38,214 nucleotides of DNA from Fidelibacterota bacterium. GTDB lineage: Bacteria > Fidelibacterota > Marinisomatia > Marinisomatales > TCS56. Shown here one piece after another: positions 31,001 to 36,547 of this stretch. The notes under the pieces were generated by a model, which worked only from the letters and a program-made list of their open reading frames with translations, was not told the DNA's origin and ran no database searches. The stretch spans positions 1 to 38,214 of the forward strand of contig JBDRBK010000098.1 in assembly GCA_043822705.1 (NCBI GenBank), read 5' to 3'. How positions within the stretch are numbered: position 1 is the stretch's first letter; every line of letters begins with the position of its first letter. Position numbers and translations under genes: made by a program.

Positions 31001-32338
31001 GTGAGATTACCCACCTTTAAGAAGGGCGTTCATCCGAACGACCACAAATATTTCACCTGTTCCAAAATAATCGAGCCGCTGCCGCTGCCGGAAAATGTGT
31101 TCATTCCCCTGCAGCAGCACATCGGCGCGCCCTGCACGGCCACGGTCGAGCCGGGTCAGGCCGTCAAGACCGGCCAGGTGATCGGGTCCAGCGCAGCCTA
31201 TGTCTCCAGCCCGGTCCATGCCACGGTCACGGGGACGGTAAAAGACATCGGTGTCTTCCCGCATCCGGTGGGCGGCAAGGTCCAGATGATCCAGATTCAG
31301 CGCAGTGCCGAGACCGACGACTGGGATTTAATGGAACCGATCAAGGACTGGCCGACCGCCTCTGCCGCAGTGCTCAACCAGCGCATCCGCGAAGCGGGGA
31401 TCGTCGGACTGGGAGGCGCCGCCTTCCCGACCCATGTCAAACTGGCGCCGCCTAAGGAAAAACCGATCGACAGCTTTATTCTGAACGGCTGCGAATGCGA
31501 ACCGTACCTGACCGCCGATCACCGGGCAATGATCGAATACTCCGACCGGATTCTGACCGGCATGGCCATCATCATGCAGGTGCTGGGCGTCAGCAACGGT
31601 TATATCGGGATTGAAGACAATAAACTGGACGCCATCGAAACCATGCGGGCGGCGGTCATAAAAGGCGGCTACGATTATAAGGTTGTGTCACTGCCGGTCA
31701 AATATCCCCAGGGCGCGGAAAAAATGCTGATCCAGTCGGTGCTGAACCGGCAGGTGCCCACCGGCGGCCTGCCCATGGATGTGGGGACGGTGGTCAACAA
31801 TATCGGCACCGCCATCGCCGTGGCCGATGCCGTGCTTGAAGGCAAGGCGCTGGTGGAACGGGTTGTCACCGTCACCGGCGACGGCCTCAACGAACCGAAA
31901 AATGTGTTGGCCCGGATCGGCACGCCGTTCCGGGATATCATCAATTATTGCGGCGGCCTGAAGAGCGCAGCCGCCCAGGTTTTCATGGGCGGTCCGATGA
32001 TGGGCATGTCCCAGTTTAATCTGAATGTGCCGGCGGTCAAGGCCACCAGCGGGATTGTCTGCACCGCCGAACCGGGACAGGCGGCGGACCGGGCCCAACC
32101 CTGCATCCGTTGCGGCTCCTGCGTGACGGCCTGCCCGATGTTCCTGCTGCCGACCAGAATTGCCCGGCTGGCGGAAATGGGCAAACCGGCGGCGGCTGAG
32201 GAACTGGGAATCCTGAATTGTATCGAATGCGGCTCCTGTGCCTTTGTTTGTCCCGCCGAGATACCGTTGGTACAGTGGATTCGCCTCGGTAAACTGCGGG
32301 TCGGTGAGATGAAACGAAAAGCCCAAAACGCGGCTTGA
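31001..32338 (+). CDS. rnfC: Rnf/Rsx electron transport complex subunit C
   Basis: QHIGAP, GIVGLGGAAFPTHVK, NGCECEPYLTAD, YPQGAEK, GGPMMG, two CxxCxxCxxxCP motifs. Confidence 0.96.
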   Translation: MRLPTFKKGVHPNDHKYFTCSKIIEPLPLPENVFIPLQQHIGAPCTATVEPGQAVKTGQVIGSSAAYVSSPVHATVTGTVKDIGVFPHPVGGKVQMIQIQRSAETDDWDLMEPIKDWPTASAAVLNQRIREAGIVGLGGAAFPTHVKLAPPKEKPIDSFILNGCECEPYLTADHRAMIEYSDRILTGMAIIMQVLGVSNGYIGIEDNKLDAIETMRAAVIKGGYDYKVVSLPVKYPQGAEKMLIQSVLNRQVPTGGLPMDVGTVVNNIGTAIAVADAVLEGKALVERVVTVTGDGLNEPKNVLARIGTPFRDIINYCGGLKSAAAQVFMGGPMMGMSQFNLNVPAVKATSGIVCTAEPGQAADRAQPCIRCGSCVTACPMFLLPTRIARLAEMGKPAAAEELGILNCIECGSCAFVCPAEIPLVQWIRLGKLRVGEMKRKAQNAA

Positions 32339-32346
32339 GGAAAGCA

Positions 32347-33381
32347 ATGGACGAAGAAAAGAAATTACCCGAACAACCGGCGGCTAAACCCAAAGCGGAC
32401 AAGCCGGTCAAGGATCCGCGGGCCAAACTCTACCAGCCGGAACACATGTTGATCATGTCTTCCAGCCCGCACCTGGGAACGGCTGACAGCGTTTCGAAAA
32501 TCATGTGGACGGTGATCGTCGCCCTGTTGCCGGCGGTGGTGATGGCGACCTATTATTTCGGTTGGGCGGCTATTTTCATGGTCGGCACCTGCGTCGCCAC
32601 GGCCCTGCTGACCGAAGCGCTGGTCAACCGCCTTAAAGGCGAAACACTGACCATCAAGGACGGCAGTGCCGCCATCACCGGGCTGCTGCTGGCCCTGACC
32701 CTACCGCCGTCATTTCACCTAACCGGGGCGGTGATCGGGACGGTCTTCGCCATCGGCATCGGCAAGCATATTTTCGGCGGACTGGGATACAATATTTTCA
32801 ATCCGGCGTTGCTGGGCCGCGCCTTTCTTCAGGCCAGTTTCCCGGTAGCGATCACCACTTGGACCAATCCCCGGACCATCGACGCGGTATCTACCGCCAC
32901 ACCTCTGGGAGCCTTCAAATTTGAAAAGATCGGCACCGCCCTGGTAGACCTCCTATACGGAAATACGGGCGGGTGTCTGGGGGAAACATCCGCCATTGTG
33001 ATTCTGGCGGGAGGTCTGTTCCTGATTATCAAGAAATATGCCGACTGGCGGATACCGGCCAGCTATCTGGGCTCGGTGTTTGTACTGGGCGGCATCTTCT
33101 GGCTGATCGATCCGGTGCAGTATCCCGACCCGTTCTTCCACCTGTTCAGTGGTGGTCTGATGCTGGGCGCCTTTTTCATGGCCACTGATATGGTCACCTC
33201 GCCGATCACGCCCAAAGGCTCCTGGATATTCGGAACCGGGGCCGGCATCCTGCTGGTGATCATCCGGCTCTGGGGCGGACTGCCGGAGGGCGTCATGTAT
33301 TCGATCCTGTTGATGAACGCCTGCACGCCACTGATCAACCGTTACACCCGGCCACAATATTTCGGAGAACCACGCGCATGA
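32347..33381 (+). CDS. rnfD: Rnf complex subunit D
   Basis: SSPH, FGGLGYNIFNPA, FMN site STATPL, GCLGETS, FFMATD; GAGG RBS before ATG 32347. Confidence 0.95.
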   Translation: MDEEKKLPEQPAAKPKADKPVKDPRAKLYQPEHMLIMSSSPHLGTADSVSKIMWTVIVALLPAVVMATYYFGWAAIFMVGTCVATALLTEALVNRLKGETLTIKDGSAAITGLLLALTLPPSFHLTGAVIGTVFAIGIGKHIFGGLGYNIFNPALLGRAFLQASFPVAITTWTNPRTIDAVSTATPLGAFKFEKIGTALVDLLYGNTGGCLGETSAIVILAGGLFLIIKKYADWRIPASYLGSVFVLGGIFWLIDPVQYPDPFFHLFSGGLMLGAFFMATDMVTSPITPKGSWIFGTGAGILLVIIRLWGGLPEGVMYSILLMNACTPLINRYTRPQYFGEPRA

Positions 33382-33956
33382 ATACATCCACCAAAATGAT
33401 CGTCGTCCTGACGATCATCGCTGCTCTCTCCGGCAGCGTCCTATCGATGTGGGACGGCGTCACCGCACCCCGGATCGAAGCGAACCGGCTGAAGGTCCTG
33501 AAACAGGCCATCTCCCGTGTGCTGCCGGCTTACGAAAGATATGATGAAGTTCAGGTGCGCGAAGATATTACCCTGTATGTCGGCAAGGATGCGGCTGACA
33601 ATACCGTCGGCGTCGCCTTCAAAGCCAAGGGTAATGGTTTCTCGCCGGACCTGACGCTGATGGTCGGCATCACGCCCAACTTCGGCGAATTGACCGGCAT
33701 CGAGGTGCTGGAGCAGACCGAGACGCCCGGCCTCGGGAATAAGATCGAAGAGGACTGGTTCAAGGGCCAGTTCAAAGGTTTGATTACCGACGCCCAGAAG
33801 GCGCAAGTAGTGAAAAATGTTAAACCGGCCGATCCCACCCGCGGGATTCAGGCCATTTCCGGTGCCACGATTTCATCCAAGGCGGTGGTCGATATCATCT
33901 GGAAGCAGATTGCCGTGGTACGCGAATTATATCAAGTGAAAGTGGCAGGTATCTGA
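33378..33956 (+). CDS. rnfG: Rnf complex subunit G
   Basis: N-terminal TM, ETPGLG, FMN-binding SGATISS. Confidence 0.94.
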   Translation: MNTSTKMIVVLTIIAALSGSVLSMWDGVTAPRIEANRLKVLKQAISRVLPAYERYDEVQVREDITLYVGKDAADNTVGVAFKAKGNGFSPDLTLMVGITPNFGELTGIEVLEQTETPGLGNKIEEDWFKGQFKGLITDAQKAQVVKNVKPADPTRGIQAISGATISSKAVVDIIWKQIAVVRELYQVKVAGI

Positions 33957-34567
33957 TGGCAAAGCAAAATTCACTTAAAGTCGAAGTTCTGAAGGGCATC
34001 TGGGCCGAGAATCCGGTCCTGATCCAACTGCTGGGACTCTGCCCGACTTTGGCGGTGACCAACGCCGCCATCAACGGTCTGGCGATGGGCCTGGCCACTA
34101 CCTTTGTACTGCTGATGTCCAGCATTCTGATCTCGCTGATCCGTAACCTGATCCCGGCCCAGGTGCGGATCGCCGGTTTCATCGTGGTGATCGCCACTTT
34201 CGTGACCGTCGTGGATAAATTCCTGGCCGCCTACACCCCGGATATCAGTAAAGCGCTGGGCGCCTTTATTCCACTGATCGTGGTCAACTGCCTGATTCTC
34301 GGACGGCAGGAAGCATTCGCTTCCAAGAATAATGTGGGCCGTTCGATACTGGATGCCGTTGGTATGGGCGTCGGGTTCGCCACGGTCCTGACTGTGCTGG
34401 GTGCGATCCGCGAACTGTTGGGCGCCGGCAGTATCTTCGGGCTGGCGATCATGCCCGCTTCGTTCAATACCTGGCTGGTGATGATTCTGCCGCCGGGAGC
34501 ATTTCTGACGCTGGGTCTGCTGATCGGACTGGCCAACTGGTATAACGACAGGAGGGCGCGGGCATGA
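33956..34567 (+). CDS. rnfE: Rnf complex subunit E
   Basis: ENP...LLGLCPTLAV, IPLIVVNC.ILGR, PPGAF. Confidence 0.95.
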   Translation: MAKQNSLKVEVLKGIWAENPVLIQLLGLCPTLAVTNAAINGLAMGLATTFVLLMSSILISLIRNLIPAQVRIAGFIVVIATFVTVVDKFLAAYTPDISKALGAFIPLIVVNCLILGRQEAFASKNNVGRSILDAVGMGVGFATVLTVLGAIRELLGAGSIFGLAIMPASFNTWLVMILPPGAFLTLGLLIGLANWYNDRRARA

Positions 34568-35136
34568 GTCTCTTAATGCTGTTCATTTCGGCGGCGATCG
34601 TCAATAATTTCGTATTGTCGCAGTTCCTGGGTATCTGTCCCTTTGTGGGCGTTTCCAAGAAGATCGATTCAGCCGTCAGCATGGGCCTGGCGGTGACCTT
34701 CGTACTGACGATTACCGCGGCCGTTACCTTCCTGATCAATAAATACATCCTGATGCAGTTCGGCTTAACCATACTCCAGACCGTTTCCTTTATCCTGGTG
34801 ATCGCCTCGCTGGTGCAGCTGGTGGAAATGTTCATCAAAAAAGTCAGTCAGCCACTGTATAAGGCCCTGGGAATTTACCTGCCATTGATTACCACCAATT
34901 GCGCCATCATGGGACTGGCGTTGTTTGCCGTCGCCAAGGAATACTCCTTTATCGAAGGGATCGTCTATGCCATCGGAGCCGGCGTTGGTTTTACCTTGGC
35001 GCTGATAATCATGGCCGGCATCCGCGAGGAACTGGAACTGGCACGGGTGCCCAAAATTTTCCAGGATGCCGGCATCACCATGATCGTAGCCGGCAGCTTG
35101 GCGCTGGCGTTCATGGGTTTCGCCGGATTGATTTAG
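34564..35136 (+). CDS. rnfA: Rnf complex subunit A
   Basis: NNFVLSQFLGICPF, LGIYLPLITTNCA, AGIRE. Confidence 0.95.
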   Translation: MSLLMLFISAAIVNNFVLSQFLGICPFVGVSKKIDSAVSMGLAVTFVLTITAAVTFLINKYILMQFGLTILQTVSFILVIASLVQLVEMFIKKVSQPLYKALGIYLPLITTNCAIMGLALFAVAKEYSFIEGIVYAIGAGVGFTLALIIMAGIREELELARVPKIFQDAGITMIVAGSLALAFMGFAGLI

Positions 35137-35144
35137 TTGGGATT

Positions 35145-35174
35145 CACCGCGGAGGACGCAAAGGGCGCAAAATA
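35145..35174 (+). repeat. Left arm (L) of the 9-nt-periodic inverted repeat flanking the GxxExxY gene
   Basis: CAC-CGCGGAGGA-CGCAAAGGG-CGCAAAATA; complementary to 35629-35647 and 35680-35697. Confidence 0.85.
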
Positions 35175-35207
35175 ATTGAAAATGATAAAGCAGACGAGGC
35201 AGCAGAG

Positions 35208-35612
35208 TTGACCATCGGCAAATCAGCAGCGTATTTGAATAAGCTCTCTAATTTGATTATCGGAGCAGCTTTAGAAGTGCATAAGCAACTCGGTCCTGGA
35301 TTGTTGGAATCGGCCTATGAAGCGTGTTTGGTTTACGAACTGACTCAAGCTGGACTAAAGATTGAGCGACAAAAAACATTACCAATTATATATAAATCAA
35401 ACCGGATAGATTGTGGTTATCGACTGGATATTGTAGTTGATGATGGCATTATATTGGAACTTAAATCTGTTGATCAAATTCTGCCGGTGCATAAAGCACA
35501 GTTAATGTCCTACTTAAAGCTATCCCAATTGTCATTAGGGCTATTAATAAATTTCAATGTGACTATCCTGAAAGATGGTATTATCAGATTAGTCAATGAA
35601 TTTCCCGAATGA
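35208..35612 (+). CDS. GxxExxY family protein (PD-(D/E)XK nuclease-like)
   Basis: IIGAALEVHKQLGPGLLESAYEACL, YRLDIVV, ILELKSV, HKAQLMSYLK, GLLINFN. Probable TTG start at 35208 after GAGG (TTG 35235 is an alternative). Confidence 0.9.
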   Translation: MTIGKSAAYLNKLSNLIIGAALEVHKQLGPGLLESAYEACLVYELTQAGLKIERQKTLPIIYKSNRIDCGYRLDIVVDDGIILELKSVDQILPVHKAQLMSYLKLSQLSLGLLINFNVTILKDGIIRLVNEFPE

Positions 35613-35619
35613 TCCAATA

Positions 35620-35697
35620 CTCTGCTTACTTTGTGTTTTTTGCGGTGGAATAGAAATCAAGATTTTTTAACTTAGCGAACTTTGCGTTCTCTGCGGT
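35620..35697 (+). repeat. Two right arms (R1 35620-35647, R2 35671-35697) of the inverted repeat
   Basis: CTCTGCTTA-CTTTGTGTT-TTTTGCGGT and CTTAGCGAA-CTTTGCGTT-CTCTGCGGT; direct repeats of each other, 51 nt apart. Confidence 0.85.
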
Positions 35698-35713
35698 AAA
35701 AACGAGGAAAAAG

Positions 35714-36547
35714 ATGATTAATTCGATACTGATTTCGATGGCCAGTATGGGCGGACTGGGACTGCTGTTTTCGGCGGGACTGGCCGTGGCCAATAAAAAA
35801 TTGTATGTGGAAGAAGATCCGCGGATCGCCCAGGTGCTGGAAGAATTGCCCGGCGCCAACTGCGGCGGCTGCGGCTATCCCGGCTGCGCCAATTTCGCCG
35901 ATAATATCGTTGCCGGCAAGGCGGCTGTCAATGGTTGCCCGGTCAACACTGCCGATGGCGCGGAAGCGATCGCGCGGATCATGGGCGTAGATGCGGAATC
36001 CGGCGAACGGCTGATCGCCCGCGTGATCTGCCGCGGCGGCGATTACGAGACCGCCAAGAAAGGTGTTTATAACGGCATCCAGTCCTGCACTTCGGCCCAC
36101 CTGATGGGCGGCGGCGACCGGTTATGCGACTATGGTTGTATCGGCTACGGCGAATGCGTTGCGGTCTGTCCTTTCGATGCCATGTATATGAATGAGAATC
36201 ACCTGCCGGTGGTGATCGAGGATAAATGCACCGGCTGCGGCAACTGCGCCGAGATTTGCCCGCGGAATGTAATCGAAATGCATCCCGAGAGTCATAAATT
36301 GTTCATCATGTGCAAGAACGAAGACGCCGCCAAGGAAGCCCGCGCCACTTGTATCAAAGCCTGTATCGCCTGTGGGATTTGTATCCGGGCGGTGGAAGAT
36401 GGTGAAATTATTATCGAGAAGAACCTGGCCCGCATCGATTATGATAAGTACGGCCGGGTGCCGGTTATCCCGACGGATAAATGTTCCACCAACTCCTTTG
36501 TCACTTTCGGTGCCGAAGAATCAAAAGAACTGGAAGCAGCGGCCTAA
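35714..36547 (+). CDS. rnfB: Rnf complex subunit B
   Basis: N-terminal TM, LPGANCGGCGYPGC, CDYGCIGYGECVAVCPFDA, CTGCGNCAEICP. Confidence 0.95.
   Translation: MINSILISMASMGGLGLLFSAGLAVANKKLYVEEDPRIAQVLEELPGANCGGCGYPGCANFADNIVAGKAAVNGCPVNTADGAEAIARIMGVDAESGERLIARVICRGGDYETAKKGVYNGIQSCTSAHLMGGGDRLCDYGCIGYGECVAVCPFDAMYMNENHLPVVIEDKCTGCGNCAEICPRNVIEMHPESHKLFIMCKNEDAAKEARATCIKACIACGICIRAVEDGEIIIEKNLARIDYDKYGRVPVIPTDKCSTNSFVTFGAEESKELEAAA

Follow-up and report, generated by a model that had tools for sequence, protein, structure and literature searches.

An AT-rich GxxExxY gene cassette between inverted word arrays in the rnfA-rnfB spacer of a Fidelibacterota genome

Described systems closest to the insert

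The intervening sequences (IVS) of bacterial rRNA and the short tandemly repeated repetitive (STRR) hairpins of filamentous cyanobacteria are the described systems that a gene cassette between rnfA and rnfB in a 38,214-nt stretch of Fidelibacterota DNA most resembles (the window, meaning the whole stretch analysed; contig C98, GenBank JBDRBK010000098.1, of the 3.34-Mb, 218-contig genome G000). One described rRNA IVS is 428 nt long, has a 28-bp terminal stem within which RNase III cuts, and contains ~36% GC compared with 42.5% in its genome (PMC4990558). STRR hairpins are found between hupS and hupL, where they have been discussed in terms of the stability of the transcript or of translational coupling (PMC2670836). 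The insert reported here is a 553-bp block (35145-35697) whose sole gene encodes a GxxExxY protein, and we assign a probability of roughly 0.65 to the reading that it belongs, as a resident copy, to a class of promoter-less small-gene cassettes that occurs across phyla in operon spacers. A member of this class would be built from a GxxExxY PD-(D/E)XK gene within in-register inverted arrays of short phased words, located between two co-transcribed genes.

With the ORF-bearing 23S rRNA IVS of Leptospira and Coxiella burnetii (helix 45), as described in PMC4990558, the cassette shares the form of a selfish insert of ~0.4-0.55 kb with an 18-28-bp terminal stem and one small open reading frame (ORF), a GC content below that of the host, and a position in a transcript whose function has to be preserved. 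The IVS analogy drawn in the initial annotation holds for stem, size and low GC content. Moreover, the IVS protein family itself, PF05635, occurs seven times in G000, in cassettes of the same build. Unlike in the IVS, the host RNA here is an mRNA operon spacer, the ORF belongs to PD-(D/E)XK (PF13366) and not to S23p/PF05635, and phased word arrays make up the arms; excision by RNase III is a feature of the IVS and, for the rnf cassette, a proposal by analogy. The STRR hairpins as described carry no gene and belong to another phylum, whereas the arrays here enclose a gene and consist of 7-nt words at a phase of ~9 nt. Both have short units in tandem that fold into a hairpin in the spacer of genes transcribed together, with three 9-nt units per arm in the window copy, and an arm-only allele of this kind is present in genome G039.

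Two further systems are similar in part. In REP/REPIN sequences with RAYT genes (REPtrons), a small enzyme gene is bracketed by inverted short repeats, and gene-less hairpin copies occur elsewhere. The likeness is one of layout only: a single small enzyme gene lies between inverted repeat copies, with gene-less hairpins elsewhere, but the sole gene of the insert encodes a protein of PD-(D/E)XK fold and not an HUH Y1 (IS200/IS605-like) transposase, word types are many per genome, gene-less copies in G000 are few, and no strand bias is seen. Free-standing homing endonuclease genes of the T4 seg/mob type lie between phage genes, belong to other nuclease families and have no flanking inverted word arrays. 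What they share with the cassette is a small nuclease gene that sits among genes of the same orientation, lacks a mobile-element backbone and is co-expressed with its neighbours, as is likely for the cassette; spread by cutting gene-less alleles, which characterizes the T4 type, would by analogy be the favoured model here as well.

No literature description of gene cassettes with such arms was found for GxxExxY, PDDEXK_3, IVS, STRR or TAACTGA repeats, in searches that did not cover supplements; in one paper GxxExxY appears as an annotation label only, and in another the function of PDDEXK_3 is listed as unknown. The cassette class is widespread and apparently undescribed. GxxExxY proteins have no known function and are abundant, PF13366 being found in 175/301 genomes sampled from the phylum and the proteins in many phyla, including archaea. 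The in-register hairpin arms in which the genes are packaged, their sense orientation in operons and the build that they have in common with the '23S IVS protein' family make a testable element out of what was a vague 'hypothetical nuclease', and they join three loose ends, namely rRNA intervening sequences, STRR hairpins and PDDEXK_3. What the window copy contributes is a clean series of alleles and a test of an RNA-only claim that came out negative.

Build of the insert and of related cassettes

According to the ORF list and profile matches, rnfC, rnfD, rnfG, rnfE and rnfA occupy 31001-35136 and rnfB 35714-36547, and the 577-nt rnfA-rnfB spacer holds a single gene (35208-35612, + strand) of family PF13366. 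The GC content is 0.34-0.405 within 35200-35700 compared with 0.55-0.62 in the flanks. The initial annotation of an AT-rich GxxExxY gene that interrupts the rnf operon is confirmed by these data, as is its description of the element as transposase-free, the only gene of the insert encoding a PD-(D/E)XK protein. The host site is the rnfA-rnfB spacer and not a 23S or 16S rRNA helix. The left arm (35145-35172, + strand) is an array of three 9-nt units of CGCNRAR-type words and includes segment L (35145-35163). Downstream of the gene lie two right arm arrays, also of three 9-nt units each: the R1 array (35620-35648, + strand), T-rich and degenerate, includes segment R1 (35629-35647), and the R2 array (35671-35697, + strand) includes segment R2 (35680-35697). 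The cassette is read in the operon sense, and no promoter-like or terminator-like site was found on the + strand in 34800-36000, which makes co-transcription with rnf likely.

The gene starts with TTG at 35208, in frame, and stops with TGA; an ATG at 35182 is out of frame, and a Shine-Dalgarno sequence, GAGG (35196-35199, + strand), lies 8 nt 5' of the TTG. Its 134-aa product matches PF13366 (1.7e-42, 144.9 bits; cut-off 22) and TIGR04256 GxxExxY (9.7e-45, 151.7 bits; cut-off 35). Invariant in 65 aligned sequences are G29, G31, E34, Y37, D74, E84, K86, Q98, Y102, N115, F116 and R127, which comprise the GxxExxY motif (G31-E34-Y37) and the D...ExK catalytic signature (D74, E84, K86) of PD-(D/E)XK nucleases. 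The AlphaFold2 (AF2) model, with a predicted local distance difference test (pLDDT) score of 92.4, has a restriction-endonuclease-like alpha/beta fold. Its nearest folds by VIA-align are the BpuSI nuclease domain (Z 7.8, rmsd 3.3, 95 aligned), Cas4 SSO0001 (7.7), CinB (7.5) and Hjc (6.3), and tRNA-splicing endonucleases rank lower (Z 5.2-5.5). With Foldseek, the AF2 model had no match in PDB at E <= 1e-3, and a sequence search of solved structures gave no match at E <= 1. The homodimer prediction (score 0.00, mark 0.42) was uninformative either way. The profiles, the invariant triad and the fold neighbours agree with the earlier assignment of GxxExxY proteins to the PD-(D/E)XK superfamily. Judged from sequence and model, the cassette protein is likely an active nuclease, and its predicted fold leans to a DNA substrate without settling the substrate.

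Arms were analysed in two cassette sets. The phylum set contained 98 GxxExxY ORFs, 89 of which had 150 nt on both sides. For the cross-phylum set, 80 loci from other phyla, some of them archaeal, gave 81 ORFs, of which 79 were used. The arm score, defined as the best ungapped upstream:downstream complementary segment, exceeded the 95th percentile of shuffled controls in 65/89 phylum cassettes and 61/79 cross-phylum cassettes. A period of 9 nt was the commonest best-fitting one (28/49 phylum and 20/49 cross-phylum cassettes analysed). Unit-specific positions matched in register at 0.72 (n=778) in the phylum set and 0.79 (n=830) in the cross-phylum set, figures that are somewhat inflated by the use of the best-scoring register, though not to the extent observed; when shifted by one period, the match fell to 0.32 and 0.31, respectively. 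The arms consist of 7-nt words repeated at a phase of ~9 nt, in inverted arrays that are in register with each other. Word types vary widely among cassettes, and both arms within one cassette agree.

The cassette gene was AT-richer than its 1-kb flanks in 161 of the 168 cassettes (86/89 phylum and 75/79 cross-phylum, with medians of -12 and -9 GC points), and its GC content tracked that of the host (r = 0.60 in the phylum set and 0.87 in the cross-phylum set). Neighbour orientation in the phylum set (n=89) was ++ in 79 cases, -+ in 3, +- in 1 and -- in none, with one side undetermined in 6; as a crude baseline, 1293/2304 gene triples of G000 (56%) are ++. The cross-phylum set (n=79) gave ++ 43, -+ 14, +- 12, -- 7 and ?+ 3.

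The same build recurs elsewhere in G000. Its second GxxExxY gene lies between citE- and citF-like genes and has arms of a different word. All seven PF05635 ('23S rRNA IVS protein', four-helix-bundle) genes (L203-L209: C123:15726-16037, C84:21138-21455, C11:20336-20647, C106:22373-22687, C192:16777-17016, C75:13940-14158 and C128:35524-35826) have inverted word arrays of their own, with seven different word types, and none of the seven is in rRNA. The arm build is a rule for the GxxExxY family and for the four-helix-bundle cassettes of G000. Such unrelated cargo in one build could also be explained by a classical DNA transposon, or an element like a miniature inverted-repeat transposable element, with the arms as terminal inverted repeats for a transposase that is encoded elsewhere and binds them in trans, and with the GxxExxY gene as passenger cargo. 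Arm-only copies, such as that of G039 at rnfA-rnfB and the hairpins on contig C46 of G000, would fit this explanation, as would the breaking of assemblies at the arms (run X4). However, at least nine word types were seen, differing even within one genome, and a single transposase could not recognise all of them. The invariance of the nuclease triad suggests that the gene itself plays an active part, and no target-site duplication is recognisable between flanks that are too diverged for a judgement. We consider a transposon quite improbable.

Two observations concern word arrays outside the rnf operon. A citrate-lyase-like operon (C128:35524-37824; L002 and L209) contains two cassettes ~1.7 kb apart, one GxxExxY and one PF05635, each with its own inverted arms. 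Mosaic arrays with three word modules in series (CGCAAAG, AATTGGA and GCTCCTCA types) are present at C198:20570-21881 and C13:18381-18720 of G000; the GCTCCTCA word is that of the PF05635 cassette on C106, and the mosaics may reflect nesting of hairpin elements within one another.

Strand preference of the arms

Direct reading of the window confirmed the positions of L, R1 and R2 and the pair counts given for them in the initial annotation. L:R1 forms 19 contiguous pairs (14 Watson-Crick and 5 G-U) and L:R2 18 pairs (16 Watson-Crick and 2 G-U), so that the terminal inverted repeats form long ORF-enclosing stems of 19 and 18 bp. In all seven deviations from Watson-Crick pairing, a G in the left segment faces a T in the right one, as had been noted. 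R2 shares the positions of its two G-U pairs with R1, leaving about five independent events rather than seven. Within the limits of L, R1 and R2 the deviations are G-U only; when L:R2 is extended outward by a strand-neutral score (GU 2, AC 1 and other 2 over 26 positions), one C-A mismatch is added and this part of the description no longer applies.

The RNA duplex of both spacers has a predicted energy of -58.7 kcal/mol compared with -28.7 +/- 3.9 for 1000 dinucleotide shuffles, 0/1000 of which were as good; the separate duplexes have -27.0 (L:R1) and -31.8 kcal/mol (L:R2). On the antisense strand, the duplex of the window arms has -45.3 kcal/mol, the sense duplex being 13 kcal/mol more stable. 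The L:R2 helix is present in the minimum free energy (MFE) and centroid folds of 35125-35725 (z = -3.39). These energies and the seven G-U deviations are what an RNA-level operon intervening sequence would lead one to expect, that is, arms selected to pair in the rnf mRNA, with RNase III or the GxxExxY protein excising the insert or looping it out and so concealing it from the operon. The stem base lies 8 nt 3' of the rnfA stop and 6 nt 5' of the rnfB Shine-Dalgarno sequence, a position compatible with such a mechanism, and the sense orientation of 79/83 fully called phylum cassettes and the lack of an own promoter point the same way. Likewise, known IVS stems are RNase III substrates (PMC4990558), and the hupS-hupL STRR hairpins have been discussed for transcript stability or translational coupling (PMC2670836).

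If the arms were selected as sense-strand RNA, G-U should exceed A-C among their mismatches. In the 168 cassettes of both sets, no sense-strand excess of G-U over A-C was found: mismatches numbered 173 G-U (97 phylum and 76 cross-phylum), 180 A-C (83 and 97) and 263 others, all transversions (163 and 100). Higher score cut-offs left the outcome unchanged (G-U:A-C 83:76 in the phylum set and 64:86 in the cross-phylum set), and single cassettes were equally lopsided both ways, for example, 6:0, 0:4 and 1:5. The arm mismatches are without strand preference. The initial annotation had taken G-U-only deviations as the mark of an RNA-specific helix and as an argument against DNA inverted repeats, and had proposed a G-U strand bias in homologous flanks as a check. 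No such bias exists in the family, the helix is not marked as RNA-specific by its deviations, and the arms are in-register inverted repeats that represent the standard build of these cassettes. The window's G-U pattern is real, but it is no family property and cannot carry the RNA inference; where a family is without strand bias, a single copy with an all-G-U stem, however tidy, is no evidence that a mechanism acts at the RNA level. In addition, the nearest folds of the cassette protein are DNA nucleases, with tRNA-splicing endonucleases at Z 5.2-5.5, and 34900-35900 contains no Rfam match at E <= 1. An RNA-level intervening sequence is, on balance, unlikely. An intron or ribozyme was also considered and rejected, the ORF being a nuclease of DNA-enzyme fold and Rfam giving no match.

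The lack of bias removes the evidence for RNA selection, and a stem that forms or is processed in RNA remains compatible with it. Local selection on the window's transcript is likewise compatible with the G-U pattern. The L:R2 stem would form in the rnf transcript, the arms being complementary, and it is conceivable, though rather doubtful, that RNase III cuts it there as it cuts rRNA IVS stems. Such a cut would release the cassette as a small mRNA, and rnfA and rnfB could still be translated. The insertion would then be tolerated thanks to a side effect at the RNA level, for whose selection the sequence statistics give no sign.

Two gene-less hairpins on contig C46 of G000 (C46:420-510 and C46:1950-2095) have an asymmetry like that of the window. 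Their left words carry G where the right words carry T, giving G-U on the strand shown, and the position within the word does not change from unit to unit among the three.

Alleles of the rnfA-rnfB junction and descent of the cassette

RnfA was searched in 60 other genomes of the order, 14 of which have an orthologue of at least 76% identity; the other matches are a paralogue (~45%). The junction set consisted of the rnfA-rnfB spacers of G000, of these genomes and of G243, and stems in the relatives' spacers were read by eye. Three of the six same-family genomes with this rnfA have the gene at the same junction (G000, G051 and G243). In G039, the spacer is a 107-nt hairpin with the word type of the cassette arms and no gene, in G059 it shows the left arm and then the contig end, and in G026 it is 24 nt long and has no arms. 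The left arm begins 8 nt 3' of the rnfA stop in all five arm-bearing genomes (G000, G051, G243, G039 and G059). Among more distant relatives, the spacers of G028, G019 and G003 are short and lack such arms, and seven distant genomes (G032, G044, G001, G042, G054, G030 and G015) have 137-230-nt spacers with stems or word arrays, several of them of other word types. The spacer varies even between two very close genomes, G054 and G030 (branch lengths 0.017 and 0.037).

The comparison of junctions that had been proposed in the initial annotation yielded both filled and gene-less alleles. Together with the occurrence of the same family elsewhere, the filled, arms-only and arm-less alleles bear out its view of an insertion and not an rnf component. 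The block is an insertion, present at the same junction in most family genomes, one of which keeps the arms only; the rnfA-rnfB spacer is a dynamic site, and the cassette gene is not part of Rnf. As an rnf accessory gene, it was rejected, being present in 3/15 junctions examined, G000 included, one of which is unreadable at a contig end. A broader version of this idea, a domesticated accessory or defence nuclease in operons whose hairpins are ordinary intercistronic stabilisers of the REP/STRR kind, would draw on the conserved catalytic residues, the correlation of gene GC with host GC (r = 0.60 and 0.87) and the old, apparently vertical residence at rnfA-rnfB in the family. Against it stand the patchy distribution (175/301 phylum genomes, and the 3/15 junctions above), the closest relatives of the protein, which occur in other phyla and archaea at ~60% identity, the GC deficit in 161/168 cassettes and neighbours that are unrelated from site to site. 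We regard a domesticated host function as scarcely credible.

The cassette proteins of G000 and of G051/G243 are 61-62% identical, compared with ~92% for RnfA and 83-86% for RnfB. Replacement of one cassette by another at the same site was considered and set aside; FastTree places the window protein apart from those of G051 and G243, but the approximately unbiased (AU) test does not reject a single clade (p-AU 0.455). The economical reading of the compared sequences would be one old insertion, vertical descent, loss of the gene from G039 and, for G026, either loss or a junction that never received the insertion. From these comparisons, the element appears to be an old, largely vertically inherited resident.

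For the preferred reading, that of a resident cassette of a cross-phylum class, the inverted repeat would be kept up at the DNA level. The nuclease would cut hairpin- or cruciform-forming word arrays, and recombinational repair would copy the cassette in or re-homogenise the arms. We advance this homing-like route, through the cassette's own nuclease and recombinational repair, tentatively, as a possibility somewhat short of even odds. A more far-reaching version gives the word-array hairpins two roles. In DNA, they would be what the structure-specific nuclease of the cassette targets and would supply the homology for homing; in the mRNA, they would prompt RNase III cutting or looping and thereby render the insertion harmless. 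GxxExxY and four-helix-bundle cassettes would then be the mRNA counterparts of rRNA IVS, and cyanobacterial STRR hairpins their empty shells; we think this version unlikely.

Several points weigh against the preferred reading. No mobility was seen in action, the AU test is compatible with a single origin, and the junction data fit one old insertion followed by loss. The direction of change at the junction is unreadable because four family members form an unresolved polytomy in the host tree. Comparison of arm-less with filled junctions gave no recognisable target-site duplication, the flanks being too diverged to judge. The cross-phylum orientation is no better than the crude baseline of ordinary genes, gene calls were crude longest-ORF calls that are noisy in GC-rich genomes, related genomes in the cassette sets are not independent, and the in-register match is inflated to the degree stated above. 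Fold matches are middling (best Z 7.8) and do not settle the substrate. L-type two-word arrays are weakly enriched in G000 (27 compared with 16 in a block-shuffled genome), and clear gene-less hairpins there are few, those on contig C46 being an example. Finally, the window copy itself has the more stable sense duplex, by 13 kcal/mol, and G-U in 7/7 deviations.

The block is flanked by two host genes. Upstream, rnfA (34564-35136, + strand) encodes the Rnf-Nqr membrane subunit (PF02508, 1.7e-58) and ends with TAG at 35134-35136, followed by the 8-nt left flank (35137-35144, + strand), whose offset is equal in G051, G243, G039 and G059. Downstream, the rnfB Shine-Dalgarno sequence, GAGG (35704-35707, + strand), lies 6 nt 3' of R2, and rnfB (35714-36547, + strand), with its ATG at 35714, encodes the Fe-S subunit (PF04060 and Fer4 domains).

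Four DNA runs yielded contigs of relatives only, none of which bridged an empty rnfA-rnfB junction. Contigs of a relative with ~8% of positions differing (run X4) stop at the arms, at 35120/35157 and 35693/35690; such contig ends located exactly at the arms indicate that the repeats break short-read assemblies. Many PF13366 copies in the phylum are likewise found at contig ends.

Two further arrangements were seen in relatives. At L071 (G059:C153), tandem gene-less hairpins at ~1300-1520 and ~1850-2050 flank a GxxExxY gene, each with three-word arms and a nearly identical loop of ~28 nt. In the rnfA-rnfB spacers of G032, G044 and G001 (L008-L010), a conserved non-coding core of ~100 nt, possibly a small RNA or the remnant of arms without a gene, lies between short CCGCAGRG / CYCTGCGG stems recognised by eye, and these stems change jointly on both sides among the three genomes.

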